A stretch of DNA of 64,000 nucleotides from Planctomycetota bacterium. Its GTDB lineage: Bacteria; Planctomycetota; B15-G4; SIAN01. The notes beneath the pieces were generated by a model. The model was not told the DNA's origin. It saw nothing but the letters and a program-made list of their open reading frames with translations, and did not search any database. Position 1 is the stretch's first letter. Each line of letters opens with the position of its first letter. Both the position numbers and the translations under genes were made by a program. Of this stretch, positions 24,203-51,166 are shown in pieces. Location: positions 224,001 to 288,000 of the forward strand of contig JANNXA010000055.1 in assembly GCA_031409275.1 (NCBI GenBank), given 5' to 3'.

Positions 24203-24250
24203 CGAGCGAACCCGCCCAACCCCCTGGGCAGCTCTCTTCGGCCGGATCGA

Positions 24251-24814: not shown

Positions 24815-24902
24815 GCCAGGACTCCTCGGCGAGCAGCGCCTATCGCCGGGCGACGGCCGACTCTTCGACCGCCACGGCGACGAGCGCTACGGGCCGCGCG
24901 TT

Positions 24903-27094: not shown

Positions 27095-27100
27095 GCGCGG

Positions 27101-28615
27101 CTACGCCTCAGGCGCGGCGCGGCCATGGCGGCGCTCGTGCGCGGCGATCCGCGCCGCCTTCGCAAGCGCGCGCCGTGCCAGCCGACGGGCGAACGCCCCA
27201 TCGCCGCGCGTGTAGGCCAGCAGCGCCCGCCACCGTTCGGCACGTGTCACGCCGGCCGCGCGTGCCGAGAACTCGAGCGCCGCGAGGTCCTTGGTGCGCC
27301 CGCGGCCGGGCAGACGCGCATGCCAGCTGACGCGCGACAGGTCGATCAGCACCAGCGAGCCGTCGACGCGCGGCAGGAAGTGGTCGAGATAGAGATCGCG
27401 GTGGAGGAACCCGGCCGCATGCAGTCGCCGCGCCATGCGCGCCGCAGCCAACAGCAACCGCCGCCGAGACGCTGCGCCAAGCGGCAGGCTCGGCAACTGC
27501 TCCCGCAACGTCACCCCCGGATCCACGCCCCGCGTCCACAGCACCGACGCGGCACCGTGCTGGCGAGCGACGGCCACGACTTGCGGCACCTCAATTCCGA
27601 GCGACGCCACCGCGCGCAGATGAACCCACTCCTGGAACGCCGGCGAGCGGCCGCGCTTCGGCGCCGCGTCGAATCGCTTGCCAAACCAGGTCGCCGTGGG
27701 CTCGCCTGGCGGCGCCGGCCAACGCAGGTTGGCGCGTCCGTCCCGAGTCCGCACCACGATCGAGTCCGCCGGCGCGAGCCATCTCGCCACCGAGCCGATC
27801 GGCGCCGCGCCATTCCACCGCGCAGCCACGTCGCCGGCGATGACGAGACGCTGCGTCGCATCGGTCCACTCGCGCACCCCCTCGGGGCGGGGCAGGCGCG
27901 CCTTCTCGAACAAACGACCGCGCGCGCGCCGAATCGACGCGGCGAGGCGGCGCCGCTTGAGGCGGTCGGGCTCGTAGGCCACCAGCATTCGCGCGCGCTC
28001 CGCCAACGAAAGTTGGCGCCGATCGATCGTCGCGAAGAGCGCGGCCCAATCGGCCGCCCGCGCCACGTCGGGGCAGCTCCGTCGCACCGATCGCACGCGC
28101 GCCTGCGCCAGGTCGATCCAGGCGATCGTGTCGCCGTCGATCCACGCATGCCAGGCGAAGAGCTGGCCGTGCGCGATCCCCGCCGCATGCAGCTTCGACA
28201 GCGCCATCGGGAGCGCGGCGAGGAGCTGCGCGCGCCGCGCGCGATCGACCCGCGGCAGGACCACGTCGAGCGGCTCGCCAGCGCGTTCCGCGTATGCCAG
28301 GAACGCCGCGCCATCGCGCCGCCGACCACGCGCCACGATGCGCGGCGCCGCGATCCCGCGCTCCACGCACGCCCGCGCGGCAGCCTCTTCGCGACGGAAC
28401 GTGCGGCGCTGCGCCGGCAGGAAGCTCTTCACGAAGAGGCGTGGACGCCCGAGTTCGGCGACGCACCACACGGCGCGCCCGTCGTTGGAACCGATGGCGC
28501 GGGCCGCTGCTGGCGGCCACGGCCACTCGGCAGCTGGATCCCACGCCGCCAGCAGCGCGGCCGCTTCGTCCGCGACCGCCAACCTCCAGCGCGAACGCGC
28601 CACCGGCTCAGCCAT
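27101..28615 (-). CDS. LPS kinase (WaaP/InaA/Kdo family), tandem two-domain protein
   Basis: C-terminal HAAGFLHRDLYLDHFL...LIDL...KDLAAL; N-terminal copy HAAGIAHGQLFAWH...WIDL. Confidence 0.8.
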   Translation of the reverse strand: MAEPVARSRWRLAVADEAAALLAAWDPAAEWPWPPAAARAIGSNDGRAVWCVAELGRPRLFVKSFLPAQRRTFRREEAAARACVERGIAAPRIVARGRRRDGAAFLAYAERAGEPLDVVLPRVDRARRAQLLAALPMALSKLHAAGIAHGQLFAWHAWIDGDTIAWIDLAQARVRSVRRSCPDVARAADWAALFATIDRRQLSLAERARMLVAYEPDRLKRRRLAASIRRARGRLFEKARLPRPEGVREWTDATQRLVIAGDVAARWNGAAPIGSVARWLAPADSIVVRTRDGRANLRWPAPPGEPTATWFGKRFDAAPKRGRSPAFQEWVHLRAVASLGIEVPQVVAVARQHGAASVLWTRGVDPGVTLREQLPSLPLGAASRRRLLLAAARMARRLHAAGFLHRDLYLDHFLPRVDGSLVLIDLSRVSWHARLPGRGRTKDLAALEFSARAAGVTRAERWRALLAYTRGDGAFARRLARRALAKAARIAAHERRHGRAAPEA

Positions 28616-29399
28616 GCGACTCCGACGCCGCTTTGCTCTTCTTGCCGACGGCCATCGGAGCCGCAACGCGCGCCGCGAGCGCCTTCGCGACGGCATCCTT
28701 CGCCGCTTTCGCGGGCCCCTTGTCGATCAGCTTCGCCGCGCTTTTCATCGGCACCGTCTTGGCCGCGCCCGGCTTCTGCAGCGGCGCGCGCGCGGCAGCC
28801 TTCGGCGCCGACGATTTCGCCTTCGCGTTCGCGGTCGCCACTGGCTTCGCGCCCTTCTTCGGCTTCGCCGCGGGGGGCGCAGCGACCTTGCGCTCGCGGC
28901 GCGGTGCACTCGGACCGCTCGCGCCGCGTTCTCCGCGGATCCGCGCCAGCAGGTCGATGGTCGAGTGGTCCTTCGGATCGCCCACCACGATCAGCTCGGC
29001 GCCGATCTCGGCGAGGACGTCGCGCTCCGGCAGCGTGTCGAGCGCGTAGTCGGTGCCCTTCGCCACGAGCTGCGGCCGCAGCTTGCGCAGCAGCGGGCCG
29101 CAGGTCTCTTCGGAGAAGATCGTGACGTAGGCGACGCCTTGGATGGCGGCGAGGATCTCGGCGCGCTCGGCCTCCGGCTGCACCGGACGATCGGGCCCCT
29201 TCAACTTGCGGATCGAGGCATCGCTGTTCAGCGCGACGACGAGGAAGTCGCCGCGCTTGGCCGCGTCGATGAGGCAGCGGATGTGTCCGACGTGCAGCAG
29301 GTCGAAGCAGCCGTTGGTGAAGACGACGCGCTTGCCACCGTCGCGAAGCCCGCGCAACCGCAGCGCGAGCTCGTCATGGTCGCGGATGATCATTCCCAT
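28608..29399 (-). CDS. Stand-alone heptose-1-phosphate adenylyltransferase (RfaE domain II/HldC) with Lys/Ala-rich tail
   Basis: VFTNGCFDLLHVGH, NSDASIRKLKGPDRP, KGTDY, followed by about 100 aa of low-complexity basic tail. Confidence 0.88.
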   Translation of the reverse strand: MGMIIRDHDELALRLRGLRDGGKRVVFTNGCFDLLHVGHIRCLIDAAKRGDFLVVALNSDASIRKLKGPDRPVQPEAERAEILAAIQGVAYVTIFSEETCGPLLRKLRPQLVAKGTDYALDTLPERDVLAEIGAELIVVGDPKDHSTIDLLARIRGERGASGPSAPRRERKVAAPPAAKPKKGAKPVATANAKAKSSAPKAAARAPLQKPGAAKTVPMKSAAKLIDKGPAKAAKDAVAKALAARVAAPMAVGKKSKAASESHG

Positions 29400-29463
29400 C
29401 GGACGCTCCCTCTCCCTGGTTCCGGCACGGCGCGACATCATGCCGCGGCGCCGTCGTTCCTGA

Positions 29464-30468
29464 TCACGCTTGCCCGAAAGGCGCCGGCGCGCGAGCGAGC
29501 ACGTCCCGCAGTTCCTGTTGCGAGCAGGTCGCCGCCCCGACCTTCATCACCACGACGCTGGCCGCGCAGTTGCTGATCCAGGCCGCCTCGCGCAGCGACG
29601 CGCCGGCGAGCCGCGCCGCGCTGAACGCCGCCACCACGGTGTCCCCGGCGCCCGACACGTCGACCACTTCGCCGGTCCCGACGATTCCGAACTCGAGCGG
29701 CTCCTGGCCCTGCGCGAAGAGCACCATGCCGTGCTTGCCGCGGGTCAGCAGCACCGCCCCGACGCCAAGCCGCTGCAACAGCGCCCGCCCGACCGCGAGG
29801 GCATCGCTGCCCGCCTCGATCTTGAGGCCCGCGGTCTCCTCGGCCTCCTCCTCGTTGGGGGTGATGACGGTGACGCCGGAGAACGCCGGCAGTCGATGGC
29901 GCGAATCGACGATGACCGGCTTGCTCTTCGCCTTGCGGCGCAACCAGTCGATCACGGCCGGCGTGAGCAGGTCGTAGTCGTAGTCGGAGACGAGGAAGGC
30001 TTGAACGCTGCGGTCGACCACTTCGAGACGCGCGATCGTCTCCTGCTCGCGCGGTCGCGCCTCGCCCCGGCGCGGCTCGCGGTCGATCCGGAAGAGCTGC
30101 TGCTTGGTGCGATGCGGATCGCCGGCGAGGATGCGGGTCTTGGTCACGGTCGGCCGTTCCGGGCGCCGCAGGATCGCGCCGGGATCGACACCGGCCGCCC
30201 CCAGCATCTCGATGACGCGGTCACCGGCCGAATCGCTGCCGACCTCCGCCACCATCTGCACGTGCACACCGAACGCCGCGAGGTTGCGAGCCGTGTTGGC
30301 CGCGCCGCCCGGGATCACCTCTTCGCGCTCGTAGTGGACCACCAGCACCGGTGCCTCGCGCGAGAGGCGCGCCGGCCGCGTGTACAGGTAGACGTCCGCG
30401 ATGACGTCGCCGACGACGCCGATCGTGAGCCCGTGCATCTTGTCGAGCCAGTGGGCGAGCGGGCTCAC
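29464..30468 (-). CDS. Stand-alone heptose-7-phosphate kinase (RfaE domain I/HldA, PfkB family)
   Basis: VVGDVIAD, RLSREAPV, PGGAANTA, TPNEEE, DVSGAGDTV. Confidence 0.88.
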   Translation of the reverse strand: MSPLAHWLDKMHGLTIGVVGDVIADVYLYTRPARLSREAPVLVVHYEREEVIPGGAANTARNLAAFGVHVQMVAEVGSDSAGDRVIEMLGAAGVDPGAILRRPERPTVTKTRILAGDPHRTKQQLFRIDREPRRGEARPREQETIARLEVVDRSVQAFLVSDYDYDLLTPAVIDWLRRKAKSKPVIVDSRHRLPAFSGVTVITPNEEEAEETAGLKIEAGSDALAVGRALLQRLGVGAVLLTRGKHGMVLFAQGQEPLEFGIVGTGEVVDVSGAGDTVVAAFSAARLAGASLREAAWISNCAASVVVMKVGAATCSQQELRDVLARAPAPFGQA

Positions 30469-31922
30469 GCGTCGGCTCCCTTGCCGTCACGGATACGTTC
30501 GATGAGGCCGGTCGTCGAGAAGCCGGCGACCAGCGGCGCAAGCACCACCACCCCGCCATGCGCCTCCACGAACGAACGGCCGACGACGCCCTTGTCGCGC
30601 CAGTCGGCACCCTTCACCAGCACGGCGGGCGCGATGGCGGGCACCACCTTCTCGGGCGTGTCCTCGCTGAACGGGAAGACGGCGTCGACACACGCGAACG
30701 CGGCCAGCATCCGCATCCGCTGCGCGAGCGCCTGCACCGGCCGCCCGGCGCCCTTCGCGCGGCGCACCGAGGCGTCGTCGTTGACGGCGACGAAGAGGAG
30801 GTCGCCCTGCGAGCGCGCATGCTCGAGCGACTGCACGTGGCCCGCATGCAGCAGATCGAAGCAGCCGTTGGTCAGCACGACGCGCCGCCCCTGCGCGGCG
30901 TAGCGATGGGAGAGCTCCGCCGCTCCGGCGCGCGTGAGCACCTTCGACGCGGTCGAGAAGCCATGGGCGAGCGCATTGGCGAGTTCCGCCGGCGTCACGC
31001 TCGCCGCGCCGAGTCGCTCGACGACGAGTCCAGCCGCCGCATTCGCGAGTTCGACGCCCTCCGACAGCGGCAGCTCCGCCGCGCGCGCGAGCGCCAGCAC
31101 GGCGATGACGGTGTCGCCGGCGCCGGTCACGTCGAAGACGGTGCGCGCGCGCGTCGGAGCATCGCCTTCGGCGCCATCCGCCGTGCGCCAGTAGATGCCG
31201 CGCGCACCGCGCGTGATGACCACCCAACGCAGCCCGATCCGCTTCAGCAACTGCTCCGCCGCGGCACGACAACCGTCGAGCGTCGACGTGTCGCATCCGG
31301 TCGCGGCCTCGGCTTCGGCGGCATTGGGAGTGATGCCGTGCGCGCCGCGATAGCGCTCGAAGTCGCGGCCTTTCGGATCGACCAGCACTTCGGCGCCGAG
31401 CGCACACGCCGCCTCGATCAACGGGCGCGTCAGCAGCCCCTTGGCATAGTCGGAGAGGATGACCGCGTCGACCTTGCCGCGCAGCTTCAGCAGCTGCGCG
31501 ACCATCCGCTGCTCGAGCGCGCCGTGGATCGCGGACGCCTCCTCGCGATCGACCCGCAGCATCTGCTGATGGCGCGCCAGGATGCGGGTCTTCTCGATGG
31601 TCGGGCGCGCCGGATCGACGCGGATCCCGCTGGCGGAGACGCCCGCCGCAACCACCTGTTCCTTCAGCAGGCGGCCCGCCGCGTCGCTGCCGCAGACGCC
31701 GACCAGCAGCGGATGACCGCGCAAGCTCGCGACGTTGGCGGCGACGTTCGCCGCGCCGCCCGCGCGCACCTCTTCGCCGCGGACATGCACGACCGGAACC
31801 GGCGCCTCGGGCGAGATGCGCGGGACGTCGCCGCGCACGTAGCGATCGAGGATGAGATCCCCCACCACCAGCACGCGGCGCCGCGCGAGGCGCGCCACCA
31901 GCTCATCGCCGCCCTCGCTCAT
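30465..31922 (-). CDS. hldE: Bifunctional heptose kinase/adenylyltransferase HldE
   Basis: VGDLILDRY...RISPEAPVPV, SDYAKG, DVTGAGDT and TNGCFDLLHAGH...LVKGADW. Confidence 0.92.
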   Translation of the reverse strand: MSEGGDELVARLARRRVLVVGDLILDRYVRGDVPRISPEAPVPVVHVRGEEVRAGGAANVAANVASLRGHPLLVGVCGSDAAGRLLKEQVVAAGVSASGIRVDPARPTIEKTRILARHQQMLRVDREEASAIHGALEQRMVAQLLKLRGKVDAVILSDYAKGLLTRPLIEAACALGAEVLVDPKGRDFERYRGAHGITPNAAEAEAATGCDTSTLDGCRAAAEQLLKRIGLRWVVITRGARGIYWRTADGAEGDAPTRARTVFDVTGAGDTVIAVLALARAAELPLSEGVELANAAAGLVVERLGAASVTPAELANALAHGFSTASKVLTRAGAAELSHRYAAQGRRVVLTNGCFDLLHAGHVQSLEHARSQGDLLFVAVNDDASVRRAKGAGRPVQALAQRMRMLAAFACVDAVFPFSEDTPEKVVPAIAPAVLVKGADWRDKGVVGRSFVEAHGGVVVLAPLVAGFSTTGLIERIRDGKGADA

Positions 31923-32860
31923 GCGCGCCACTCCGCCGGCGGATCGATCAGCATCCAGCGCAACAACGGGAGCAGGATCTCGTGGTGACCGCGCAGGTCG
32001 AACGCCGGACCACCGGCCGGTCGATCGAGCACGTTCATGCGCGGCCGGTAGTGCGGCAACTGGTCGAGGTTCGCCGTCGTGAAGCGGTCGACCGTCGCAC
32101 CGAGGTTGCGCGCGATGGCGAGCGCCTTGAGGAAGACCTCGGGCAGCGTCACCGCCGAGCCGACGTTCACATAGGCGCCGCCCTGAAGCTTCGTGACCTG
32201 TTCGGCGAAACGGCGGAAGTCGGCGAGGCTCGTCGCGCCGATGGCGGCGCCATCCGCGGTCGCGTGCATGTGCACGATGTCGGCGCCGAGCGTGACATGG
32301 ACGGTGCCCGGCGTCCCGCGCTGCACGCACTGCCAGAGCACCGAAAGCTCGCGATGCGGCAGCGCTTCGCGATCGATGGCGCGACCCACCGCCTCGCCGA
32401 ATCCGATGCCCGCTTCAGCGCCGCGCCGCACGGCGCCGTTCAGGAACTCGGCGGTGTCGCGCGCCATGCCGAAGCTGCCGTCCTTGAGCGCGCTGCCCAC
32501 ATCCTCCGACGTCGCGCCGATCATCGCCAGCTCGACATCGTGGATCGCGCCGGCGCCGTTGGTCGCCAGACCGTTCAGCAGCCCGCGATCGAGCAGATCG
32601 ATCAGCAACGGTGACAGTCCCACCTTCAGCACATGCGCGCCGATCCCGAAGTAGATCGGAGCTCCGGCAGCGCGCGCGTGAAGCAGCGCCTTCGCCAGCC
32701 CCTTCAAGGCCTTCGCCCCGAGCACGTCGGGCAAGGCGCCGAGCAACGCGGCGACGGCACCGGGCGGCGGCACATCGACGCGCGCGAACCCGTCGCGCGA
32801 GACGAGGCTTGGACGGTCCGCGAGCGCGTAGGTCTTGAGGCGATCGAGCGGAAGAGTCAT
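31919..32860 (-). CDS. Conserved uncharacterised protein, deoxyhypusine-synthase-like fold (GSU2086-type)
   Basis: LKTYALADRPSLV, GAHVLKVGLSP, NGAGAIHDVE, GATSEDV...GSFGMA, GADIVHMH, GSAVTLPEVFLKAL, HYRP, GHHEILLPLL; family recognised from memory. Confidence 0.7.
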   Translation of the reverse strand: MTLPLDRLKTYALADRPSLVSRDGFARVDVPPPGAVAALLGALPDVLGAKALKGLAKALLHARAAGAPIYFGIGAHVLKVGLSPLLIDLLDRGLLNGLATNGAGAIHDVELAMIGATSEDVGSALKDGSFGMARDTAEFLNGAVRRGAEAGIGFGEAVGRAIDREALPHRELSVLWQCVQRGTPGTVHVTLGADIVHMHATADGAAIGATSLADFRRFAEQVTKLQGGAYVNVGSAVTLPEVFLKALAIARNLGATVDRFTTANLDQLPHYRPRMNVLDRPAGGPAFDLRGHHEILLPLLRWMLIDPPAEWRA

Positions 32861-33813
32861 GGAAGCGGGCGAGCATAGCGCTCGCGCCAGCGCGGATCGG
32901 GCTCCGTGCCGCCCTTCTTCCAGCGTCGATGGAACCAGAGGTACTGCTGCGGATCGGCCCGGATCGCCGCTTCGAGACGCCGATGGAACAGGTCGGTGAT
33001 GCGCCAGGCATCCTCTTCGTCCGACAACGTCGGATCGACGGCCAGCGGCTCCTCGAAGCGCGCCTCGACTCGATGCGGGCCGGGGACGCGCGCGAACCAC
33101 GGGACGATCGGCGCACCGAAGCGCCGCGACAGCGCGGCCGCGAGCGTGAAGGTCGACGCCTCGGCATGGAAGAAGGGCACGCGCACGCCGCGACTGCCGG
33201 CGTGCTGATCGATCAGCAATCCGACGGTCGCTCCGCTGCGCAACGCGCGCGCGAGCGGCAGCCCGGCACCATCCTTCGCCACGAAACGCTGCCCATAGCG
33301 GCTGCGCAGCGCCATCAGCTCGGCGTCGAGCAGCCGGTTCTTCATGGGGCGCGCCACGACCACGCTGCGCAGTCCGAAGAGCGGCGCGAGCAGGCCGAAC
33401 AACTCCCAGTTGCCGAAATGGCCGGTCAACAGGATCACGCCGCGACCGAGCGCGAGCGCCGCATCGAGGTGATGGCGATCGCGCAGCTCGAGCATGGCCG
33501 ACGCGCCATTCCGCTCGACCAGGCGCGGCGCGAGGATCAGCTCGAGCGGGATGCGCATGAAGTGGGAGAAGCAGGCGCGCGACCACTCGCGAATCTGCGG
33601 ATCGTCGGGCGCGCGACCCAGCGCCGCAGCCATCTGCTCGCGAGCGAGGCGCGCGCGCGACGGCAACACGAGCCGCATCAACGTTCCGAGCGCGTCCGCG
33701 AGCCCGATCGACGCGCCGTCGGGAAGCCGGCGCGCCACGGCCAGGACGCCGCGCACGGCGACGGTCTCGATGCGATCGCGCAGCGTCGGCTTCGCGTCAG
33801 GCGCTCGCGGCAT
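32857..33813 (-). CDS. Lipid A biosynthesis acyltransferase (LpxL/HtrB family)
   Basis: LLTGHFGNWE, GLLIDQH, VPFF, IRADPQQYLWFHRRWK. Confidence 0.9.
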   Translation of the reverse strand: MPRAPDAKPTLRDRIETVAVRGVLAVARRLPDGASIGLADALGTLMRLVLPSRARLAREQMAAALGRAPDDPQIREWSRACFSHFMRIPLELILAPRLVERNGASAMLELRDRHHLDAALALGRGVILLTGHFGNWELFGLLAPLFGLRSVVVARPMKNRLLDAELMALRSRYGQRFVAKDGAGLPLARALRSGATVGLLIDQHAGSRGVRVPFFHAEASTFTLAAALSRRFGAPIVPWFARVPGPHRVEARFEEPLAVDPTLSDEEDAWRITDLFHRRLEAAIRADPQQYLWFHRRWKKGGTEPDPRWRERYARPLP

Positions 33814-36800
33814 GCGTGCGCGCCTTCTCCTGCTCGAAGCGCATCGCCATCGGACGCGAGATGCCGTTGCCTTCCATTGTCACGCCGTAGAGCGTGTCGG
33901 CGACCGCCATCGTGCGCTTGTGGTGGGTGACGATCAGGAACTGCGTGCTGCCGAGGAAATCACGCACCATCAGCGAGAAGCGCTCCACGTTCGCCTCGTC
34001 GAGCGCCGCATCGACTTCGTCGAGCACGCAGAACGGCGACGGCCGGGTCGAGAAGAGCCCGAATAGGAGCGCCGCGGCGGTCAGCGTGCGCTCGCCGCCG
34101 GAGAGCATCGCGATCGAACGCGGGTCCTTGCCGGGCGGAGCGGCGACGATGTCGACGCCCATCTCGGCCGGATCGTCGGTCTCGACCAGCGTGAGGTCGG
34201 CGCGGCCACCGCCGAAGAGGCGACGGAACAACGCCTTGAAGTGCTCACGCACCGCGTCGTAGGTCGCGCTGAAGCGCACTTCGCACTCGCGATCGATTTC
34301 CTCGATCATCTCCTTCAGCTTCTGCTTGGCCTGCGCGAGGTCCTGCTTCTGCTGGTGGAGGAAGGTCGCGCGCCCCTCGACGGCCTGGAGCTCGTCGATC
34401 GCCACGACGTTCACCGGTCCCAACCGCGCGAGGGTGCCGCGCAGCTTCTCCGCCTCGTTCTCCATCACCGGCAGCGCCGTACCGAACAGGTCGAGGTCGA
34501 TCAGCACCTCGATCGGCGCGGGTGCCGGCGGCGCCGCCGACGCGAGCGCCGCCGCCTCGTCGCTTCCCGCCTGCACGAGCTGCGGAGCAGCCGGGGTCGC
34601 CGACGCCGCCGGCTCGACCGTCGCGGCGACCGCCAGGTCGTTCGCGGCAAGCGGCGCGGGGAGCAGCACGACGTTCGCGCGTCCCTCCTCCACTCGCACC
34701 ACCTGGCGCACCAGCTCGTCCGGCTCGATCAGCAGCTCTTCGCGAACCTTCTGCTCGAGGAGGTTGCTGTGCAGCCGCTGCTCCTGCTCGCGCAATTCGA
34801 GGCTCTGCGCGTGGCGGCTGTCGGTTTCGACCCCGCCGCGCAGCTCATGAACGCGGCGCCGGATCTCGCCGGTCTGCGCCTTGTGCTGCTCGAGCGCCCC
34901 TTGGCGCGCCGCGAGCTCCTGCGACTGCTCCTCGACCATGGCCAGCAGGCGCGACCGCTCGGCACCGGCCGCCGCATGCGCTTCACCGAGCCGCGCCTCT
35001 TCTTCGCCGAGCTCGACCAGTCGCCGATCGGCGCGCTTCAACTCCTCGTGGCGCTCGCGCAACCGCATCCGGGCCGCTTCGCGCGCGTCGTGCGACGCTT
35101 TCGCGCGCTCGGCGAGCTTCACCACCTCGATGTCGAGCGCGAGCGCGATCTCCTCGGCTTGCCGACGCTGGTCGGCGCCGCCGTGCAGCGCCTCGGCGGC
35201 CTGCGCCCGTTGCGCGCGCGCCTCGAGCCGCTTGCCATCGAGCGCGAGGCGGCGCGCCGACAACTCGCGCGCATCGCTCTTCAGCGAATTGCTGCGCCGT
35301 TCGAGATCGACGAGCTCGCGCGCATCGAGGCCGAGCTCCTCGCGCATGAGGTCGAGGCGGTTGGAATGGCCCTGCAGCTCCTTCTGCGCCACCCCTTCGA
35401 GCTGCGACGCTTCGGCGCGCCGACGCGCGCGCACCTCGCGGTCCCGCTCGCGCAGCGCGATCTCCTGCTGCTTCGATTCGAGTTCGGCGGTCCAGCCGGC
35501 GCATTCGCGCTCGCCGCGCGCGACCGACTGCTGGAGACGCTCGCGTTCGTTGCGCCGCGTGATGAGGCCGAGGAACTCGCCACGACCGCGGCTCACGCTC
35601 TCGAACGAGGAGAGCATCACCTCGCCCTCGGCGGAGACGAGCGCGCGCCCCTCCGGCGGCGAGCAAAGCGCCATCGGCACATCGGTCGGCAGCAGGTCGA
35701 AGCGGCCGAGCAGCGCGGCGAGCAGCTCGCCATCCTTCGCGTCGAACGTGCTGGCGCGCAGCAGCTCGCTCCATGCCAGCGCCGCGCCGCCTTCCGAGGC
35801 GCGCGTCGGGATCTCGGCCCGCGACAGGATGCGGATCCGTTCGAGCCCTTCGCGGCGCAGCACCTTCAAGACGCGATCGGCCGCGGCGCGGTCGCGGACG
35901 ACCAGCGCCTCGGAGAGCGGGCCGAGCGCCGCTTCGAGGACGCGCGCCGTCTCGGCCGGAGCGGTGACGAGGTCGGCGACGATCCCCTCGATGCCGGCGA
36001 GCTCGGGGTCGCCTTGCGCGGCCCGTTCGAGCAGTCCGCGCACCACCTCGCTCACCCCTTCGTGGCGAGCGATCGCATCCTCGAGCATGAGCAGCTTGGA
36101 GCGCTCGCTCTCGACCTTCGATTCGCGATGGCGCAGGCGGTCGGAGAGCGCCTGACGATCGGAGTAGAGGCGACCGAGCACGTCGTCGTCCGCCGACAGC
36201 TCCGACTCCAGCGCGAAGCGATCGGAGGTGAGGCCGTCGACGCGACGTCGCATCGTCCGCACCGTGAGGGCGGTGTCGGCGATCGAACGCGAGCGTTCGG
36301 CGCTGCGCGCTTCGAGCTTGCGACGCGACTGCGATAGCGCCTTCCAGTGCGACTCGACGTCGGCGAGCTCGCTGCGCGCGCGCTGCTCCGCTTCGACGAG
36401 ATCGAGCTCGTCGCGCTCGAGTTCGACGAGCTGCCGCTCGAGCTCCTGCGCTTCGCGCGCCAGTTCCTGCACGCGCCGTTGCGCGAGGTGCTTCTCCTCG
36501 CGCCGATCAGCCTCCTGCTCGGCGACCTCGGCCACCCGCGCCTCCGCCTCGCGTTCGAGCCGCGCGAGCTGCTCGATCTGATCGGAGATCTCCTCGCGCC
36601 GCGCGCCGCCTTCGTCCCGTTCGCGGCCATTCTCTTGGCTGCGTTCGGCGAGCTCGGAGAGGCGGGCCGCGAGGTGCTCGCTGCGCGCGCGCCGTTCCGC
36701 CAACGTGCTGCGCAGATCGGAGATCAGCGCGGCCTGGCCCGCGAGCTCTTCCTCGCGACTCGACAGCGACTCCTCCGCGACCGAGAGCTCGGCGCGGGCG

Positions 36801-37564
36801 GCCACCACCTGCGCGGTCACCGTCTCCCGTTCGCCGCCCAGCTCCGCGAGCAACGCCGAGAGCTCGCGCCGCTTGCGCGCGAAGAGGACGGCGAGCACGC
36901 AGCGCAGTCGATCGCGCTTCTCGACGTAGGTGCGGGCGCGCCCCGCCTGCACCTTGAGCGAGCGCACCTGCCGCTCGAGCTCGCCGAGCAGGTCGGTGGC
37001 GCGCTGGATGTCCTGATCGGTGCGATCGAGGCGGCGCACCGCTTCCTTGCGGCGCACGCGGTAGCGGCTGGTCCCGGCGGCCTCCTCGAGCAGCACGCGC
37101 CGCTCGGCGGGACTCGCGCGCAGGATCGCGTCGATCTGCCCCTGCGCCATGAACGAGTAGCCGCCGACGCCGAGCCCGGTGTCGAGGAAGAGATCCTTGA
37201 TCTCCTTCAGCTTCGCGGGCGCGTCGTTGATGCGGTACTCGCCGTCGCCTTCCTTGCTCAAGCGGCGGGTCACCTTCACTTCCGCGGACGGATGCGGCAG
37301 GCGTCCCTTGCTGTTGTCGAACACCAGCGAGACTTCGGCCCCATCGACGCTCGCCGAATCACCGCGGTAGACGACGTCGGCCATGCCGGAGCTGCGCAGC
37401 CGCGTCGGCCGCGTCTCGCCGAGCGCCCATTGGATGGCGTCGACGAGGTTGCTCTTGCCGCAGCCGTTGGGCCCGACGATCGCGGTGATGCCGTCGCCGA
37501 TCAGGAACTCGGTCCGATTGGCGAACGACTTGAAGCCGTACATCTCGACCTTGGTGAGCTTCAT
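33797..37564 (-). CDS. smc: Chromosome segregation protein SMC
   Basis: GFKSFA, GPNGCGKSN, central hinge, coiled coils, LSGGE, VLDEVDAALDEAN, VTH. Confidence 0.95.
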   Translation of the reverse strand: MKLTKVEMYGFKSFANRTEFLIGDGITAIVGPNGCGKSNLVDAIQWALGETRPTRLRSSGMADVVYRGDSASVDGAEVSLVFDNSKGRLPHPSAEVKVTRRLSKEGDGEYRINDAPAKLKEIKDLFLDTGLGVGGYSFMAQGQIDAILRASPAERRVLLEEAAGTSRYRVRRKEAVRRLDRTDQDIQRATDLLGELERQVRSLKVQAGRARTYVEKRDRLRCVLAVLFARKRRELSALLAELGGERETVTAQVVAARAELSVAEESLSSREEELAGQAALISDLRSTLAERRARSEHLAARLSELAERSQENGRERDEGGARREEISDQIEQLARLEREAEARVAEVAEQEADRREEKHLAQRRVQELAREAQELERQLVELERDELDLVEAEQRARSELADVESHWKALSQSRRKLEARSAERSRSIADTALTVRTMRRRVDGLTSDRFALESELSADDDVLGRLYSDRQALSDRLRHRESKVESERSKLLMLEDAIARHEGVSEVVRGLLERAAQGDPELAGIEGIVADLVTAPAETARVLEAALGPLSEALVVRDRAAADRVLKVLRREGLERIRILSRAEIPTRASEGGAALAWSELLRASTFDAKDGELLAALLGRFDLLPTDVPMALCSPPEGRALVSAEGEVMLSSFESVSRGRGEFLGLITRRNERERLQQSVARGERECAGWTAELESKQQEIALRERDREVRARRRAEASQLEGVAQKELQGHSNRLDLMREELGLDARELVDLERRSNSLKSDARELSARRLALDGKRLEARAQRAQAAEALHGGADQRRQAEEIALALDIEVVKLAERAKASHDAREAARMRLRERHEELKRADRRLVELGEEEARLGEAHAAAGAERSRLLAMVEEQSQELAARQGALEQHKAQTGEIRRRVHELRGGVETDSRHAQSLELREQEQRLHSNLLEQKVREELLIEPDELVRQVVRVEEGRANVVLLPAPLAANDLAVAATVEPAASATPAAPQLVQAGSDEAAALASAAPPAPAPIEVLIDLDLFGTALPVMENEAEKLRGTLARLGPVNVVAIDELQAVEGRATFLHQQKQDLAQAKQKLKEMIEEIDRECEVRFSATYDAVREHFKALFRRLFGGGRADLTLVETDDPAEMGVDIVAAPPGKDPRSIAMLSGGERTLTAAALLFGLFSTRPSPFCVLDEVDAALDEANVERFSLMVRDFLGSTQFLIVTHHKRTMAVADTLYGVTMEGNGISRPMAMRFEQEKARTHAASA

Positions 37565-39501
37565 GAGGTGGGCGATCCTTCGGGCGGTCGAACGACGCGG
37601 AGCGAGGGGCCGGCGACGGTGGCGGCGAGCGCCTGGCCGTGCGGCTGCGGGTCGAAGGCATAGCGAAAGGCGGCGCCGTCGTGGGCGATGCCCAGCACGT
37701 CGCAACCGCGCGGGAAACGGAGGAAGTCGGCGCGACCGAAACGCGCCTCGGCATCGGGGAACGACTCTTCGCGCAATTCGAAGCGCGCCGCCGCGGCCCC
37801 GCCCGCCGGCAACGCCGACCGCAGGCGATCGAGCAGCCGCCCGCGCAACGCGAGCGCCGACTCGCTCTCCTGCGGGTCGCGCTCCGTGATGGCGCGCACC
37901 GCGGCGTCGACCCCCACCGGGACGAGCACGATCTGGTAGGCGTGGCTCCCGGGCAGTTCGAGCGGCAGGTCGCGCGCGATCTCGCGCAACAGGTCGCGCA
38001 GTCGCCGCAGGAACCCGACCCCCTGCTCATCGCGCTGCAGCAGGACGCGCAGGAGGTTCGCGCCGGCGGCGACCGCCCGCTCGACGATCTCGGGCAGCGC
38101 GATCAACAGTTCACGCTCACCGCGGCGGCCGGCGGAGAGCGCCAGTCTCGCGACGTTCATGCCGATGCGCGCGCCGACCACGCGCACCGTCGGGCCGGAG
38201 AGCGGCGCATGGGCGACGTCGGCGGCGCCGAGCGCGAGCGCCGACTGCAACGGCGCCGCGAAACGCAGCAGCTGCGATTCCTCTTCGCCGGCGTCGAGCA
38301 GCAGGCGCACGCGCGGCACGCGCAGGTGCGGCGACACCGCCACCGCCTCTTCGAGCAGCTGCTTCACGAAGGCGTGCATCCGCTCGCGAACGGCACCCGG
38401 CGCGCCACCGCGCCGAAACAGGCTGGTCGCGGAGGAGGGTGGCAGATCGGCGCCGACGCCCAGCACGCGCCGCAGCGGCTGCGTGCGCGAGCCGCGGCCA
38501 GGCGCATCGGCCAGCGCCAACAGCAGCGTGCGCGCCGCATCGGCCGCACGCGCGTCGTCGGCAAACGCCGGCGCGAGCGCGCGCTCGACGTGGTGGAGTT
38601 CGAGCGGCCCGTGCAGCGCGGGCTCGAGGCCATGCACGAGGTGGAGCAGGCTGGCGAGTGCGCCCGGCCACGCGGCGCGCCGCACTTCGCCGAAGTCGAG
38701 CGTGGCCTGCAGCACCTGTCCCGGCGCCTGCAATCCGTCGACGTGCAGGGCCCCTTCCAGGTGCGCGGTCGCGACCGCCGGCTCGAGCAGGCGACACAGC
38801 GAGTAGCGGCGCAGGAGTTCTCCGCCGAGCCGGACTTCCGGACGTTCGCTGTCGACCCCGCGCTGGAATGCGATCGCCTCGACTTCGCTCGCCGGCAGGC
38901 CGAGGCCCTGGTCGCGCGCCAGTCGATCGGCGCAACCGCGCGCCACCAGCTCCGCCGCCACCAACTGGCGCAGCGTGGCCGCCGCGATGACATCGCCGCC
39001 GAGCGCGCGCGCCTGCCGTTCGACGGCGGCGGCGACGGCGGTCGCATCGGCCCGCTTCATGCCACCGTCGACGAGCAGCGCGGTCGCGATCTTCGCCGCA
39101 TCGAACGGATCGAGGCATTCGCGCCCGAGCGAAGCGACCTGCAGCGTGGCGTCGCGCGCGCCGCCAGGTGCCGCGACCAGCGGTTCATTGGCGTGCAACA
39201 AGATGTAGGAACGGGCCACCTCGTGATGGCCGGTCTCCATCAGCACGCGCTCGGTGGTCTCGCGCAGCGCACGAGTCGATGCGGCGACGCTCCCGTGCTC
39301 CTCGTCGAGCACCAGCGCGACCAGCGCCGCGAGCTCCTCGGCCAGCAGCAGCTCGCCCTGTCCGACCGCAACGGCGGCGCGGTGGATCGATTGCGCGAGC
39401 CGCTGCGCGTTGAACGGTTCGCGGCTGCCGTCGCGGCGCACGATCTCGCGGATCGGCGGCCGGCCCGACGGCGTGAAGCAGTCGTCGCCGTGATCAGCCA
39501 C
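37561..39501 (-). CDS. Double ATP-cone protein with degenerate, C-terminally truncated class III RNR (NrdD)-like barrel
   Basis: [20 protein letters not shown] and second cone [18 protein letters not shown]...[31 protein letters not shown]; no glycyl-radical motif. Confidence 0.7.
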
Positions 39502-40006
39502 GGTGGCCGCCTTCGCCGCGCGGGTCGTTGCGGCGCGGCGCCTTCGGATCGGGGCGGTCGTTCAGGAGCGGGCCGAGCTCCTCGAGGAACTGCTCGACGT
39601 CCTTGAACTCGCGGTACACCGAGGCGAAGCGAACGTAGGCCACCGGATCGAGCTTGCGCAGCTCGTTCATCACGAGGTTGCCGACGAACTGCGACGACAC
39701 GTCCTTGTCGAACATCTCGTTCAGCTGCGCCTCGATGCGACGGCACAGCTCCTCGATCTGCTCCTGCGACACCGGCCGCTTCTCGCACGCCTTCAGGATT
39801 CCGGCGCGCAGCTTGGCGCGATCGAAGGGGACGCGCGTGCCGTCCTTCTTGATGACGCGCAGTTCGAGTTCTTCGATGGTCTCGTAGGTCGTGAAGCGGC
39901 GGCCGCAATCGAGGCACTCGCGGCGGCGACGGATCACCGCCGCGTCGCCCGAGGTGCGCGAGTCGATGACCTTGTCGTTGTTCGCCTTGCAGTACGGACA
40001 CCGCAT
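39494..40006 (-). CDS. nrdR: Transcriptional repressor NrdR
   Basis: MRCPYC...VIDSR...[21 protein letters not shown] cone [19 protein letters not shown]. Confidence 0.97.
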
Positions 40007-40044
40007 CGCGGCGCGATCCCCCTCAGGCCTGCGAGAGCCGCGGG

Positions 40045-40073
40045 ATTGTCGCGCCCCAGGGATGGGGTGTCAA
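40045..40073 (-). promoter_or_regulatory. Sigma70-type promoter of the nrdR operon
   Basis: Minus strand reads TTGACA-17 nt-GACAAT, 38 nt upstream of the nrdR ATG. Confidence 0.75.
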
Positions 40074-40099
40074 AGTTCCTGACCGACGAGATATGGGGT
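40053..40099 (-). promoter_or_regulatory. Tandem NrdR-box-like sites
   Basis: ACCCCATATCTCGTCG (40099-40084) and ACCCCATCCCTGGGGC (40068-40053) are 31 bp apart and resemble consensus acaCwAtATaTwGtgt; the second lies inside the promoter spacer. Confidence 0.7.
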
Positions 40100-40122
40100 T
40101 GCGGGCGCGCACCGCGCCGCAA

Positions 40123-41823
40123 TCAGCGCCCCTGACGCAGCTGCCCGGCTTCGAAACGCAGGTGGGCGCGATCGAAGAAGCGTTGGAGCTGCGGGAACGC
40201 CGGCAGTTGCCCCGCCAGCTTCTGCAGCGCTTCCGGGTCACTTCGCCACACCTTGTCCGCAATCTCGAGCGCTTTCGTCGTCTCTTCGAGTCCCACCTGC
40301 GTCGCCACGAGCCCGAGCCAGGCGTCAATCCGCGTGTCATCGACCGCGATCGCCTGCTCGAAGGCGCGGCGCGCGAGGAAGAGCGACTCGCGCTGGTTCG
40401 GGTTCGATTCGAAGTACTGCAGGAGGCTCAGCCCCAACCCGGCGAGCCCGCCGCTCAACGCCGCACGCGAGAGGCCAAGTTCGCCGAGCCATCGATCGAC
40501 CGGCTCGCGCAACGCCGCCACGGCCTGCGCCGCGTCGATCCCGGCCGCCCGCGCGCCAAGCGCTTCGAGCAGCGGACGCACCAGCGACTCGGCCAGCCGG
40601 GCCGTCCCATCGAGGTCGGGGTGACAGTAGTCGAGGAAGAGGTCGCTGCCGGGAGCGGGGCCGCCGCCAACCACGAAGAGCTCGGCGGGATCGACGAGCC
40701 GTGCGCTGCCGTTCGCGGCGAACTCGCGCACCACGGCAGCGAGCCTCGGGCCCGCACGGTTGGGAGAGCCGTCGCAAGCGAGCGCGCGCGAATAGGCGGC
40801 GCGCGCCGCGGCGTCGTCGCCCATCGCGGCCGCGAGGCGCGCGGCGAGGAACTGAACTCGCGCGACGCTGGCATCCTGCGCCAGCAGCTGCGCGACTTCC
40901 TCGCGCAGGCTCGCGAGCGGCGACGGCGGTGTCGCGGCATCGGCTCGATCGAGCGTCGCCGCCGCGGCCTCGATCCGCGCCACCGCCGCGCGATAGGAGT
41001 CGCGCTGCCCGGGTGCGAGCGGCTCGCTGAAGTGCGAGTAGCACGGCTCGAACGAGAGATTCTCGACCGGCGTCATCAGCAGCAGCGGCACCCCGGCCCC
41101 ACGCGCCGCGGCGGCGATCGCTGCGAGGTTCTCGCGGTAGCGCGCGACGCCGCGCTCGAACTCGCGAGGCGAGAGCCATGGCGCATCGCCGATGGGCTGC
41201 GGCGACGGTCGCGATTCGGGTGGCAACGCGCGCCGCCATTCGCGCGACTGCCCGGCACGCACGCACGCGAGCGAGCGCAGCGCCGTACGCAACGCCGGCC
41301 ACAGCCCCTCGCGCAACGGCTCGACGTAGGAGGCCTGGAATTCGTTGTGGCCGCTGCTGACGACCAGGACGTCAGGGGCCAGGGTCAACGCGGCCAGCGC
41401 GGCCTCGCGGACGTCGTCGCTCGAATCGGCGGAGCGCCCGAAGTTCACCACTTCGAGCGAAGCGGGCGCTCCGCCGCGACGCAGCGCCCACTCGAGCAGC
41501 CTCGCGAAAGAGAGCTGCCCATGGAACGGGAAGCCGGCCACGGTCGACTCGCCCACGACGATCACGCGCAGCGCGCCCGCGACCTTTTCGGGGGCGCAGG
41601 TGAGGCGGTCGGCGGCGGCGGCGGGATCGCCACTCTCGCCGCTCGCACTCGGCGCACGCGCGACGCGTGGCCCGTTCGGCGTGGTGAGCCTGACGAGCGG
41701 CGGCTCGACTCCAACGTGCAGGAGGCGGAGCACCACCTCGAGCAGCGCGAAGACGACTAGCGCGCCGCTCGCGCCGATCAGCGCGAGCCCGACCCGACCG
41801 CCGCGGGGCAACGGAGCGCTCAC
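40123..41823 (-). CDS. Membrane-anchored SGNH/GDSL-like protein with TPR-like segments (paralog 2)
   Basis: N-terminal TM, VVGESTVAGFP, EVVNFG, SGHNEF, FLDYCHP; GTGA overlap with the upstream paralog. Confidence 0.75.
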   Translation of the reverse strand: MSAPLPRGGRVGLALIGASGALVVFALLEVVLRLLHVGVEPPLVRLTTPNGPRVARAPSASGESGDPAAAADRLTCAPEKVAGALRVIVVGESTVAGFPFHGQLSFARLLEWALRRGGAPASLEVVNFGRSADSSDDVREAALAALTLAPDVLVVSSGHNEFQASYVEPLREGLWPALRTALRSLACVRAGQSREWRRALPPESRPSPQPIGDAPWLSPREFERGVARYRENLAAIAAAARGAGVPLLLMTPVENLSFEPCYSHFSEPLAPGQRDSYRAAVARIEAAAATLDRADAATPPSPLASLREEVAQLLAQDASVARVQFLAARLAAAMGDDAAARAAYSRALACDGSPNRAGPRLAAVVREFAANGSARLVDPAELFVVGGGPAPGSDLFLDYCHPDLDGTARLAESLVRPLLEALGARAAGIDAAQAVAALREPVDRWLGELGLSRAALSGGLAGLGLSLLQYFESNPNQRESLFLARRAFEQAIAVDDTRIDAWLGLVATQVGLEETTKALEIADKVWRSDPEALQKLAGQLPAFPQLQRFFDRAHLRFEAGQLRQGR

Positions 41824-43613
41824 GGCTTGCCGTCCCATCGCAGCTGCCCCTGCTCGATCGAGATACCGGCGCCGTGCAAGGTCGCCTGCAGTCCCGGCAG
41901 CACCGGCAGGTGGTCGAGGATCATCCGCAGCGTCGCCGGGTCGCGGCGTTCGAGCGCGAGCAGCTTCATGCGCGCCGTTGCGGGATCGGCGGCGTCGGCG
42001 GCGAGCAGCGCGCCGAGGAACTGCGCGAAGGGATCGTCGGCGAGCTCCGGCGCCATACGCAGCGCCGCTTCGACGATCTCGCGCACGATCGCCCAATCGG
42101 CGTGCGGAACCTCCGGTCGCGTCCCGATCTGGTTGGTGTAGGCGCGCGCCTGCGCGAGCAGCTGCTGCCCGCTCTGCGCCTCCGAGACACCGAGCTCGCC
42201 GCACCACGCCGCGAAACGCTCGGCGTCGCCGCCGGCAGGCTCGCGCGCCGCGTCGAATGCGGTCAGCGGGGCGATGAGGCCGCCGTCACGCACCGCCGCG
42301 AGGAGGGCGTCAGCGATCAGCCAATGGCCGCGCAGGCGCGGATGGCAATAGTCATAGAACAGGTCGAACCCGGCCACGCCGTGCACGGACACCGCGTCGA
42401 AGAGCGGCTGCAGTGGCACCACATCGACTCCCCGTCCCACCGCGAGCTCCCGCAGCGCGGCGATCAGGTCGGGCGACGCCCGCTCGGGCAGGTCGTCGAG
42501 CGCCAGCGATCGCTCGAACGCGGCGTGCGCGAGACCACGCTGGCCGAGCTGCAGCAGCAATCGCGCGCGCCGGTAGTGGAGGATCGCGGCGTCGGGTTCG
42601 AGCGCGAGCGCCGCGTCGACCTCGGCGAGAGCGGCGGCCGCCGCCGTGCGCGCTGCGACGGATGCAGTCGCAGCGGTCAGGTCCTGAAGCGCGCCCGACT
42701 CGTAGTCGCGCCCCGCCGTTTCGACGCGCGCGAGGCGCGACGCGGCGCCGTCGCCCGGCTGGAGGATCGAGTAGCGCGGCCGCGTGTCGGCAACGTTGGA
42801 AGCGGGCAGGCAGACGATCGTCCGGATGCGAAGGTCATTCGCAGCCGCCAGCAGCGCGTGCACGCCTTCGCAGAAGAGCCGGCACGCGAAGGTGCGCTGC
42901 TCCGTGGTCAGGAAGCGCCCCACCGCGATGGCCGGCGGTGCCAGCGGTGCATCGCGCGGCGGCCCGAGCAATCGCTGCAGCAGGCGGCTGCGAGCCAGTC
43001 GCGCGACACCCGGCGCCATCACGCCCAGCAGATTCGGCTTCTTCAGCTCGTTGTGGCCGACGTAGAGGATCAGCAGGTCGGGGGCGAATTGGCGCAGCTC
43101 GCTCGCAAGCGTCAGCCAGTCGTGGCTGTCGTAGCCGTTCTTGCCACAGTTCACGACCTCGACGCTCGGACCGCCCTCTCCTAGCTGCCTTCGAAGGCGC
43201 TCCTCGAGGAAGCGGGAGTAGGAGATGTTGGGCGCATACCCGGCACCGAACGTCGTCGACTCGCCGATCGAGAGGATGCGAAAGGCCGCCGGCGCCTTCT
43301 CGCGCGTCATCGCGTAGCGGCCGACGTCCGGCTCGCCATGGCGCACCGCCGCCGCGGGATCGATGGCGTAGAGGACGTGGCCGGCCGCGTCCGTTCGCGG
43401 CCGCCCCGGATCGCGCGGGTCTTCGAGCGGCACGAAATGGGGCGGCGGGCCGGGCAGCGGCCACGCCCCCGATCGATCCACCAGCACCAGCGTCGCCAGG
43501 CCGATCAGCAACGCCGCAAGCGCGCCGCACACCGCGAGCAGCAGTCGCGCTCCGAATCCACGGAGTGACGCGCGCGACGAGGGAGGACTCCCTGTGGCCG
43601 AGCTCTCCGTCAC
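41820..43613 (-). CDS. Membrane-anchored SGNH/GDSL-like protein with TPR-like segments (paralog 1)
   Basis: N-terminal TM, IGESTTFG, EVVNCG, YVGHNE, FYDYCHP. Confidence 0.75.
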   Translation of the reverse strand: MTESSATGSPPSSRASLRGFGARLLLAVCGALAALLIGLATLVLVDRSGAWPLPGPPPHFVPLEDPRDPGRPRTDAAGHVLYAIDPAAAVRHGEPDVGRYAMTREKAPAAFRILSIGESTTFGAGYAPNISYSRFLEERLRRQLGEGGPSVEVVNCGKNGYDSHDWLTLASELRQFAPDLLILYVGHNELKKPNLLGVMAPGVARLARSRLLQRLLGPPRDAPLAPPAIAVGRFLTTEQRTFACRLFCEGVHALLAAANDLRIRTIVCLPASNVADTRPRYSILQPGDGAASRLARVETAGRDYESGALQDLTAATASVAARTAAAAALAEVDAALALEPDAAILHYRRARLLLQLGQRGLAHAAFERSLALDDLPERASPDLIAALRELAVGRGVDVVPLQPLFDAVSVHGVAGFDLFYDYCHPRLRGHWLIADALLAAVRDGGLIAPLTAFDAAREPAGGDAERFAAWCGELGVSEAQSGQQLLAQARAYTNQIGTRPEVPHADWAIVREIVEAALRMAPELADDPFAQFLGALLAADAADPATARMKLLALERRDPATLRMILDHLPVLPGLQATLHGAGISIEQGQLRWDGKP

Positions 43614-47485: not shown

Positions 47486-48706
47486 TCAGTCGAGCAGCAG
47501 CGCGTCCCCGATGCAGGCGCGGTCGGCGACGTCTTCACCGGAGCCGAAGTCAGCCACCAGCGTCAACACCTTGCCGCCGCTGACGTCGAGCGCCTCGATG
47601 CGCTGCGGTTCGTCGCCGCCCCGCAGCAGGCGGCTCTTCCACCGTTCCACCCCATCCACGAGGACGCGGAACTCGACGGCGCCGCGCTCGGGCAGCGACA
47701 ACACCTCATCGCACAGCCCGACCGTCGCCACGAATCGGCGCGACGCAGGCGAGAGCGCGAAGCTGAGCTCGCATCGCGAATGGCAGCCGAACCCCTTGCC
47801 GAAACGGTGGCCCGCGGACCGGAGCGGGAGCCCCGTCACGCTGCGATCGCGCCGCCATGGGAAGAAGAAATCGCCGGGCCCGCCGAGGTAAGGGGTCTCG
47901 ACGACCTTGGACGGCTCGAGATCGGAGAGCCAGCGCCAACCGGGCGCGCGCAGGCGAATGGCTGCGACGGCGGCGCGCGGCAGTGCGACCTCCCGTTCGC
48001 CCGAAAGCGGCCGCAGCACGAGCTCCGACCCGCTCAGGCGGACGAGCTCGCCGATCAGCGTCCCATCCGGCAGCAAGTCCGCTTCCACCACCCGTCCCCG
48101 CGGCAGTCGCGGCGCAACCTGCTGCTCGAGGACGATCGCTTCGACCTCGCTCCAGGCGAAGTCGGCGGTGCCAAGGGAGTACTCGAAGCGGACGCCGCTC
48201 GCCGCGAAGGAAACGACCGTTCCGCGCGTGTGATCGCCGCCGACCTCGAGACGACGATGCAGCGTGTCGCCGTCGTGGTTGACCGCGAACGCCGCGACCT
48301 CGAGTTCGGAGTGACGCGGCCCGGCGAACACCGCGCGCACCGCGTCGAGCGGCAGCGCAAGTGTGCCACCCACCGCGAGCTCGAACTGCACCTGTTCGTC
48401 GTCGCCGCCCACGACCTTTCCGAACAGCCGACTGCCGTCATGCAGCCGCAGGGTCATCGCGTCGGCGACGGCGCGTCCGATCGCACCGGGAAAGGTGACC
48501 TCCACCAGATCGTCGAGGGCGACGCGATCGGCACCACCGTCGGCGCCGCTGACCGTCGCGTCGCCATCGGCGGCGAAGGCGACGGTGCTCGCGAGTCGTC
48601 GGCTGCCATCGCGCAGCTGCAACTCGCAAGCGTCGACCACGCCTTCGTGGGGTGAGGCAAAGACACCGGCGGCGCACAGGGCGACGAAGCTCGGGATGGC
48701 AATCAT
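47486..48706 (-). CDS. Secreted protein with C-terminal NPCBM/NEW2 carbohydrate-binding domain
   Basis: Signal peptide; WLSDLEP...RDRSVTG...[15 protein letters not shown]...[11 protein letters not shown]...LDVSG...ADRACIGDA. Confidence 0.8.
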
Positions 48707-48828
48707 GGCGCGATTGTACGGAGGCCAGTTCCCCGGTGATCGGCGCCAAATTGTCAACGCGGTCGTGGGCCGATCGCAGCCTCGACGACAAAGTGGCGCA
48801 CCCTGCTCGCTGAATGCGCCGTTAGCCG

Positions 48829-48844
48829 AGGCACTCGGTTTGCC
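48829..48844 (+). promoter_or_regulatory. Putative sigma54 (-24/-12) promoter upstream of groEL1
   Basis: AGGCACTCGGTTTGCC fits GG-N10-GC with GGCAC-N5-TTGC, about 180 nt upstream of the groEL ATG. Confidence 0.45.
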
Positions 48845-49022
48845 TTCGGCCCCTCGGCTCGACAGCGCCCGCCGCGGGCGCCGCGTTCGATGCGACGTCG
48901 CCGCTCGGCGAGGCGATCGACCCGACCTGGGCTCGGTCGCAGAGTCGGACCGCACCCTTGACCTGCTGATTGGACCAGCTGAGTTCACCCGCTGGCGCAA
49001 AGACGAAGGAGAGCACTCGGAA

Positions 49023-50660
<1,638 letters not shown>

Positions 50661-50751
50661 GATCGCGGCGCGCCGCGACGTCCCGCTGATTTCATCCCGA
50701 AGACATCTACACACGAGGCCGCTGGCCTCGACAGCCCGGAGGCAGTGAGCA

Positions 50752-51048: not shown

Positions 51049-51166
51049 CGCTCGCCGCGCGCTGCGCGCGGCATGACCGCTAGGCGGTCCCCGCCGCGCC
51101 GCAGCAGACGCCTCCCACTTTCCGCCGGCCGCCCCAAGCGGCCCAACCAAGGACCACGGAACCAAC

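Follow-up and report, generated by a model that had tools for sequence, protein, structure and literature searches.

Why would a bacterium keep, in frame between nrdR and smc, a gene for an anaerobic ribonucleotide reductase (RNR) from which the catalytic parts are missing? The question is raised by gene X of a Planctomycetota bacterium (assembly GCA_031409275.1, contig JANNXA010000055.1, positions 224,001 to 288,000), a stretch of 64,000 nucleotides (nt) that we call the window and whose own numbering is used below. X descends from NrdD, the class III RNR, in its form with two N-terminal ATP cones. Our running numbers for genomes, loci and families (G, L and f; X belongs to f1) are given where needed. 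The features concerned are as follows.

37561..39501, minus strand: gene X, a catalytically dead derivative of twin-ATP-cone NrdD, 646 amino acids (aa)
39190..39456, minus strand: ATP cone 1 (aa 16-104), inner-site RRDG retained, outer-site residues lost
38917..39147, minus strand: ATP cone 2 (aa 119-195), degenerate, KRDG missing, as it is in intact relatives too
37618..38862, minus strand: class III RNR alpha/beta barrel (aa 214-628); catalytic Cys, finger loop, Zn ribbon and glycyl-radical loop all absent
39494..40006, minus strand: nrdR repressor (TIGR00244, 205 bits, cut-off 125)
33797..37564, minus strand: smc (condensin), 1255 aa (TIGR02168, 809 bits, cut-off 567)

The reading frame of X starts with GTG, contains zero internal stops and has a codon-position GC of 0.83/0.52/0.88, as in genuine genes of this DNA. 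Both of its ends overlap a neighbouring gene, nrdR by 8 nt on one side and smc by 4 nt on the other (ATGA; the smc ATG is at 37564). The intact 646-aa open reading frame (ORF) of a preliminary description of this DNA is thus borne out in its coordinates and frame, and every motif quoted there is present in the translation. The nearest relatives of X (61-85% identity) are encoded by Planctomycetota loci. The possibility raised earlier of a local pseudogene or assembly error was rejected, since there are 20 full-length near homologues (X itself included) and the frame is intact in 6/7 genomes of the family. An antisense ORF of 655 aa (37639-39606, plus strand) was likewise rejected as a shadow of high-GC coding, with 0-6 stops in its frame over seven family loci.

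Pfam on its own finds two ATP-cone stretches in X and no other domain, and X stays below the cut-offs of the PF13597 and TIGR02487 family models; the barrel is revealed by profile comparison and by fold. A1, a profile built from 38 relatives of X, matches S. thermophilus NrdD in both cone and barrel (E 1.6e-12), and its comparison with intact twin-cone NrdD of the same phylum aligned 601 columns (P=100, E 6e-66). The model predicted for X on A1 (predicted local distance difference test, pLDDT, 83; predicted template modelling score, pTM, 0.72) has the alpha/beta barrel fold of the class III type. With this model Foldseek ranked class III RNRs first (E 1e-13), and the first 21 rows in VIA were all class III RNRs (Z 18-22), followed by class I, class II and PFL rows (Z 12-15); against 4con, 404 residues were aligned at a root-mean-square deviation of 4.5. 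The Atlas neighbours of X are ATP-cone/NRDD clusters. The NrdD homology first read from motifs therefore stands on both structure search and profile comparison, and the concern that no NrdD structural match would be found is answered by the class III RNRs at the top of VIA.

Alignment to intact NrdD shows how much of the chemistry has gone. Within VHLHDLGYP the HLHD of the HxHD motif has become HVDG, the first catalytic Cys is lost (VYCSSH to VLQATL), the AACCRL finger loop with its radical-initiator Cys is deleted, EESPAES is replaced by EESFPD, and the C-terminus stops ahead of the Zn ribbon and the glycyl-radical loop TRIVGY (RxxGY). NrdD of P. copri depends on an NxN flap and the HxHD motif as well as on Cys171, Cys416 and Gly711 (PMC11226230). 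X thus lacks every catalytic feature of a class III RNR, yet retains the fold, and all losses listed in the preliminary description (HDL motif, Cys, finger-loop Cys, TPAES, Zn ribbon and RxxGY) are seen in the alignment.

Across the whole genome, which is 92.9% complete, there were zero matches to NRDD, no NrdG over cut-off (best TIGR02495, 42 bits, cut-off 131) and no stray glycyl-radical domain by domain search (best E 0.32). The lack of nrdG noted earlier for the window thus extends to the genome, and a split gene with its radical domain encoded elsewhere was rejected, because the genome search matched nothing. The sole recognisable reductase is a class II NrdJ (L003) without an ATP cone, and ATP cones were found in NrdR and X only. 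ATP-cone or weak NrdD matches in these genomes are no indication of anaerobic synthesis of deoxynucleoside triphosphates (dNTPs).

X is nevertheless under constraint, although weaker than that on active NrdD. Ratios of nonsynonymous to synonymous substitution rates (dN/dS, pairwise by NG86) against four genus mates were 0.21, 0.22, 0.31 and 0.30, with bootstrap upper limits <0.5, and 0.44 against a fifth family member. Over the same four pairs the smc N-terminus gave 0.17-0.29 and nrdR 0.07-0.14, and intact NrdD lies far below X at 0.01-0.04 (dS saturated). Within the genus, cones and barrel are constrained alike (intervals overlap). In three of four pairs of family f2 the first 200 codons are much tighter (0.04-0.05 versus 0.15-0.21 for the remainder), and in the fourth pair, which has a broken 5' end, they are not; looser dead pairs reach 0.6-0.8 (L094/L095, L106/L109). 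The suggested dN/dS check thus yielded purifying selection (0.21-0.31 within the genus) and not neutral evolution, and the earlier opinion that this is not simple decay is upheld, since dead forms occur in 41 sampled families.

How widespread is this state? X matched 44/61 related genomes and A1 matched 305/401 genomes of the phylum, part of these via unrelated cones only. In a hand-picked spread of matching genomes we have examined 110 distinct loci encoding at least 440 aa each. The CCRL loop is kept in 22 of these (14 families), 18 of which also keep RxxGY, and is missing in the other 88 (41 families), none of which has RxxGY; no family among the 110 loci contains both kinds. NrdD over cut-off was found elsewhere in just 3/79 dead-X genomes. 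The intact form occupies 16/17 Omnitrophota loci, mostly after nrdR, and the intact state is therefore likely ancestral. The number of inactivations depends on the tree: one change on a whole-protein FastTree, which is prone to long-branch attraction; 11 on an NrdR-only tree with weak deep support; and 2-3 on NrdR plus the cone region (42 rows, with 10 long-branch candidates excluded).

Intermediate forms include those with CCRL and no RxxGY, those with TRIADY and those with only the Zn ribbon. The most reduced are bare cones of 125-208 aa, still placed after nrdR (L236, L237, L260, L142 and L143; three families). In 8/29 nrdR-centred stretches (L231, L232, L234, L238, L241, L245, L247 and L259; six families, one from the same order as X) the gene is wholly missing and nrdR abuts smc. 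The phylum thus offers a natural gradation that begins with the active enzyme and ends with the cones alone.

Some members of this series deserve mention on their own account. CCRL is intact and RxxGY missing in twin-cone NrdD at L067, L072, L083 and L086, which retain an intact Zn ribbon and have nrdG close by, and also at L156, L165, L168, L171, L189 and L218; such a protein represents either an initial decay step or a radical domain encoded separately. Five dead loci carry an NrdG-like radical SAM gene behind the dead NrdD (L084:3339-4079, L096:2632-3369, L100:3443-4216, L111:2737-3471 and L117:3468-4217; TIGR02495 118-150 bits, 3/5 over cut-off), often overlapping a dead NrdD without glycyl-radical loop; their cluster motif ends CPxP, not CHx, and no substrate is visible for the activase. 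Between intact nrdD and nrdG, L066 (3625-3894), L068, L072 and L075 encode a glutaredoxin-like ORF of 90-97 aa with C-x-x-C, for which there was no NCBIfam match (one ORF tested), and an AmmeMemoRadiSam radical SAM gene is often next at such loci.

Intact twin-cone NrdD of other Planctomycetota and Omnitrophota occupies the same place after nrdR, usually with nrdG and other genes next and with smc 1.6-2.6 kb on in 5/22 loci. Dead X lies within 250 nt of nrdR in 81/88 loci, overlapping it in 59, and within 300 nt of smc in 54/88, with smc farther on in 17 and not seen in 12 with at least 3 kb read. The preliminary description held that coupling to both neighbours argues against simple decay, and it proposed that X may act on SMC or NrdR; this proposal is weakened, for coupling is no evidence of such an action where the order is inherited. 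The place of X is held by nrdD in intact loci, and nrdR meets smc directly in the eight X-less ones.

In the region upstream of nrdR the following sites are predicted.

40045..40073, minus strand: predicted sigma-70 promoter TTGACA-17-GACAAT, the sole one in 32500-40400 (0.2 expected in shuffles)
40053..40068, minus strand: proximal NrdR-box-like site, within the promoter spacer
40084..40099, minus strand: distal NrdR-box-like site, separated from the proximal site by a 15-bp spacer

The proximal 16-mer fills the spacer of the promoter, and both the spacing and the placement of the pair fit NrdR sites known from the literature (PMC9110341, PMC12051234), 15-16 bp being the common spacer (PMC12051234). 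A strict paired core, built from a consensus after the window pair had been seen, occurs in 30/190 nrdR upstream regions (some duplicates among them) versus 0.8 expected, and in 7/7 genomes of the X family. A matrix trained on 19 loci, all outside that family, finds pairs at threshold 14 in 53/161 held-out regions versus 0.2 expected and in 4/7 of the X family. Genome-wide it returns six pairs, two of them at nrdR and at the cone-less nrdJ (G000:C9:68199-68246, L003; 16-bp spacer). The coding strand showed no terminator-like site through smc. As two box-like sites overlap the predicted promoter, nrdR-X-smc is likely autorepressed by NrdR. The cone of NrdR governs its oligomerisation, and in many cases NrdR represses the gene that encodes it (PMC9110341). 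Box pairs also precede the X-less nrdR-smc loci L238 and L247, which suggests smc as an NrdR target, and the predicted control of smc would therefore be independent of X. This predicted control, X-less loci included, would connect the levels of DNA precursors with the organisation of planctomycete chromosomes, in a way that can be tested directly.

Can X sense nucleotides? Cone 1 alone scores 56.9 bits with PF03477 (E 3e-15, cut-off 25.8) and cone 2 alone 19.6 bits (E 0.0014), so that of the two ATP-cone segments described earlier Pfam finds both stretches, while the second falls under the cut-off by itself. In P. copri NrdD the nucleotide-holding cone residues are Lys7, Arg8, Tyr83, Arg87 and Arg91 (PMC11226230), and intact rows keep all five (22/22). 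In X the inner-site equivalents of Lys7/Arg8 are R22/R23, and Tyr83/Arg87/Arg91 of the outer site have become L102/E106/A110. Across family f1, Tyr83 and Arg87 are each kept in 0/7 rows and Arg8 in 4/7; Arg8 is replaced in the other three and in 10/20 close homologues, and the KRDG motif is variable in the family. The 58 dead rows outside the order of X keep Arg8 in 48, Tyr83 in 31, Arg87 in 44 and Arg91 in 41. The helical faces of both cones remain conserved, and in dead rows the cone region retains ~0.4-0.5 of the intact consensus versus 0.1-0.3 for the catalytic region. Nucleotide sensing is thus plausible for the wider dead group and doubtful for the family of X, because the outer-site residues of cone 1 are lost there and KRDG varies. 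In the preliminary proposal of a sensor or scaffold, the sensor fits many dead relatives and is weakened for X itself; the scaffold is the safer half.

Since the cones are the last part kept, no link is as constant as that to nrdR, and cone-driven oligomers control NrdR, we tentatively favour X as a cone-mediated, non-enzymatic partner of NrdR. At low dATP (deoxy-ATP), nrdR, X, smc and, via its similar box pair, nrdJ would be switched on together, and translational coupling would have X made in step with NrdR. The cones of X could then dock on those of NrdR and shift its balance between the DNA-binding tetramer and non-binding larger oligomers. Cone 1 can probably still read ATP/dATP in most dead lineages; in the X family it probably acts largely by shape.

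Several points weigh against such a partnership, which we infer solely from gene order and a shared domain. Two genomes of family f13 (G049, G111; 86% complete) match the X profile without a match to nrdR; G049 carries small tandem ATP-cone ORF(s) at G049:C1:1124382-1124993. In f57, X is separated from nrdR yet lies ~1.7 kb from smc in 3/4 loci, and NrdR and SMC persist without X at the eight loci named above. The barrel is conserved like the cones within the genus, so that a cones-only role leaves it unexplained. The box pair of the window scores only 14.5 at a threshold of 14, and four of the six genome-wide pairs sit away from RNR genes.

The main rival, a chromosome-cycle scaffold in which X would couple nucleotide status to SMC or the replication fork by way of SMC itself or, in some lineages, the sliding clamp, seems to us unlikely, though it accounts for the proximity of smc in most dead loci and for f57, which retained smc nearby and not nrdR. 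A C-terminal Q-x-x-[LM]-F, which we take to be a clamp-binding motif, ends 11/88 dead forms (six families: L104, L107, L110, L113, L115, L119, L120, L123, L124, L125 and L135) versus 0/22 intact forms and 9/1534 internal windows, and in f57 and f19 this tail occupies the former position of the glycyl-radical loop, directly after a retained Zn ribbon. However, X itself has no such C-terminus, the smc link is ancestral (in the five intact loci smc follows behind nrdG) and outlasts the loss of X, and the 12 dead loci mentioned above show no smc. ScpA and ScpB are both encoded elsewhere in the genome, so X is no stand-in for them, and a replacement of the kleisin/kite subunits was rejected.

That the emptied barrel now binds a new ligand or catalyses a new reaction, with no relation to the neighbours, we regard as improbable. 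Selection on the barrel that equals selection on the cones within the genus would be explained, as would a PRGRD..G..HDG..[FY].Y motif common to f1 and f2 and missing from intact NrdD, and the radical SAM genes beside dead X at five loci belong to f92, f38 and f58. Yet none of the polar columns of the barrel is invariant in the dead rows, and three families have deleted the barrel entirely.

It is decidedly improbable that X provides ATP/dATP activity control in trans to the cone-less class II NrdJ, the sole recognisable working reductase of the genome. Here the restriction of cones to NrdR and X, the box pair before nrdJ and the rarity of another long cone-bearing ORF (2/45 dead-X genomes) would fit, but the nucleotide residues of cone 1 are eroded in the X family, and 15/17 genomes without an X match have no other cone-bearing ORF either (nine further genomes, picked for weak cone matches, were left out of this count). 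X is therefore not needed to fill a cone gap, and compensation for cone-less reductases is not supported.

Finally, a slowly decaying relic, open only for ribosome passage from nrdR to smc, is largely refuted and very unlikely: the overlap with either neighbour, a dN/dS that greatly exceeds the value for intact NrdD (up to the looser dead pairs) and the existence of clean deletions agree with it, but the 0.2-0.3 of X is the level of the smc N-terminus in the same pairs, an open frame requires no amino-acid conservation, and simple deletion already yields direct nrdR-smc coupling.

Returning to the partnership with NrdR, binding by X would add a protein input to a repressor known for its nucleotide response. 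The descent of X from a class III RNR, its fold, its lost chemistry, the selection on it and its gene order are established. It is possible, if short of probable, that in dozens of planctomycete families an anaerobic RNR has become a pseudo-enzyme that regulates the chromosome cycle, either as a partner that tunes NrdR, which would be the first such protein known, or as a fork/SMC adaptor, within an NrdR-repressed operon that would tie condensin supply to the dATP/ATP balance; the radical loop would have been swapped for a clamp-binding tail in some lineages and the protein trimmed to bare ATP cones in others.

Other genes of the window lie around this group. Downstream of smc and on the same strand (23080-33813, minus), lipopolysaccharide core and lipid A genes, namely a lipid A acyltransferase gene that overlaps smc, genes for an HldE-like kinase/cytidylyltransferase, Kdo/WaaP kinase, GT4 and GT9, may share its transcript. 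Between yidC and nrdR (40123-43613, minus) are two tandem ORFs with TPR-like repeats, one of them with a GDSL-like domain, and at 48363-52768 (plus) a groES-like gene is flanked by two groEL-like genes and followed by a dnaJ-like gene, as read from the translations.

How does X compare with known systems? Multi-cone RNRs occur in all RNR classes, according to a text that contains no match to 'Planctomycet' or 'inactive' (PMC9669993). The literature searched held no paper on an X-like protein or a conserved dead bacterial RNR, although supplements of RNR surveys could list such sequences. Closest is the twin-ATP-cone NrdD of Planctomycetota (Brocadiaceae and others) and Omnitrophota, for example L019/L075 (TIGR02487, 374 bits), which shares with X the slot after nrdR, the two N-terminal cones and the barrel; X is ~160 aa shorter, is without HxHD, both Cys, the NxN flap, EESPAES, Zn ribbon and RxxGY, and has no NrdG adjoining or in the genome. 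Dead RNRs with new roles are known in herpesviruses: the betaherpesvirus proteins M45/UL45, inactive homologues of the RNR large subunit, have kept the RNR fold for protein binding after loss of catalysis, as we propose for X; unlike X they are viral, of class I origin and directed at host signalling, and have nothing to do with cones, NrdR or SMC. Class III RNRs of solved structure (S. thermophilus 9d3x, T. maritima 4con, P. copri 8p2s/8p23 and 1h78) have the barrel fold (Z 18-22) and N-terminal ATP cone in common with X, but are active enzymes of 10-17% identity; of the P. copri residues named above, X lacks Cys171, Cys416, Gly711 and the cone residues Tyr83, Arg87 and Arg91 (PMC11226230). 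In the Streptomyces coelicolor nrdRJ operon, nrdR likewise comes first and an RNR-family gene next, and NrdR autoregulates via paired boxes placed over the promoter with a 15-bp spacer (PMC9110341); here, in contrast, a dead RNR-family gene stands second and smc comes after it.

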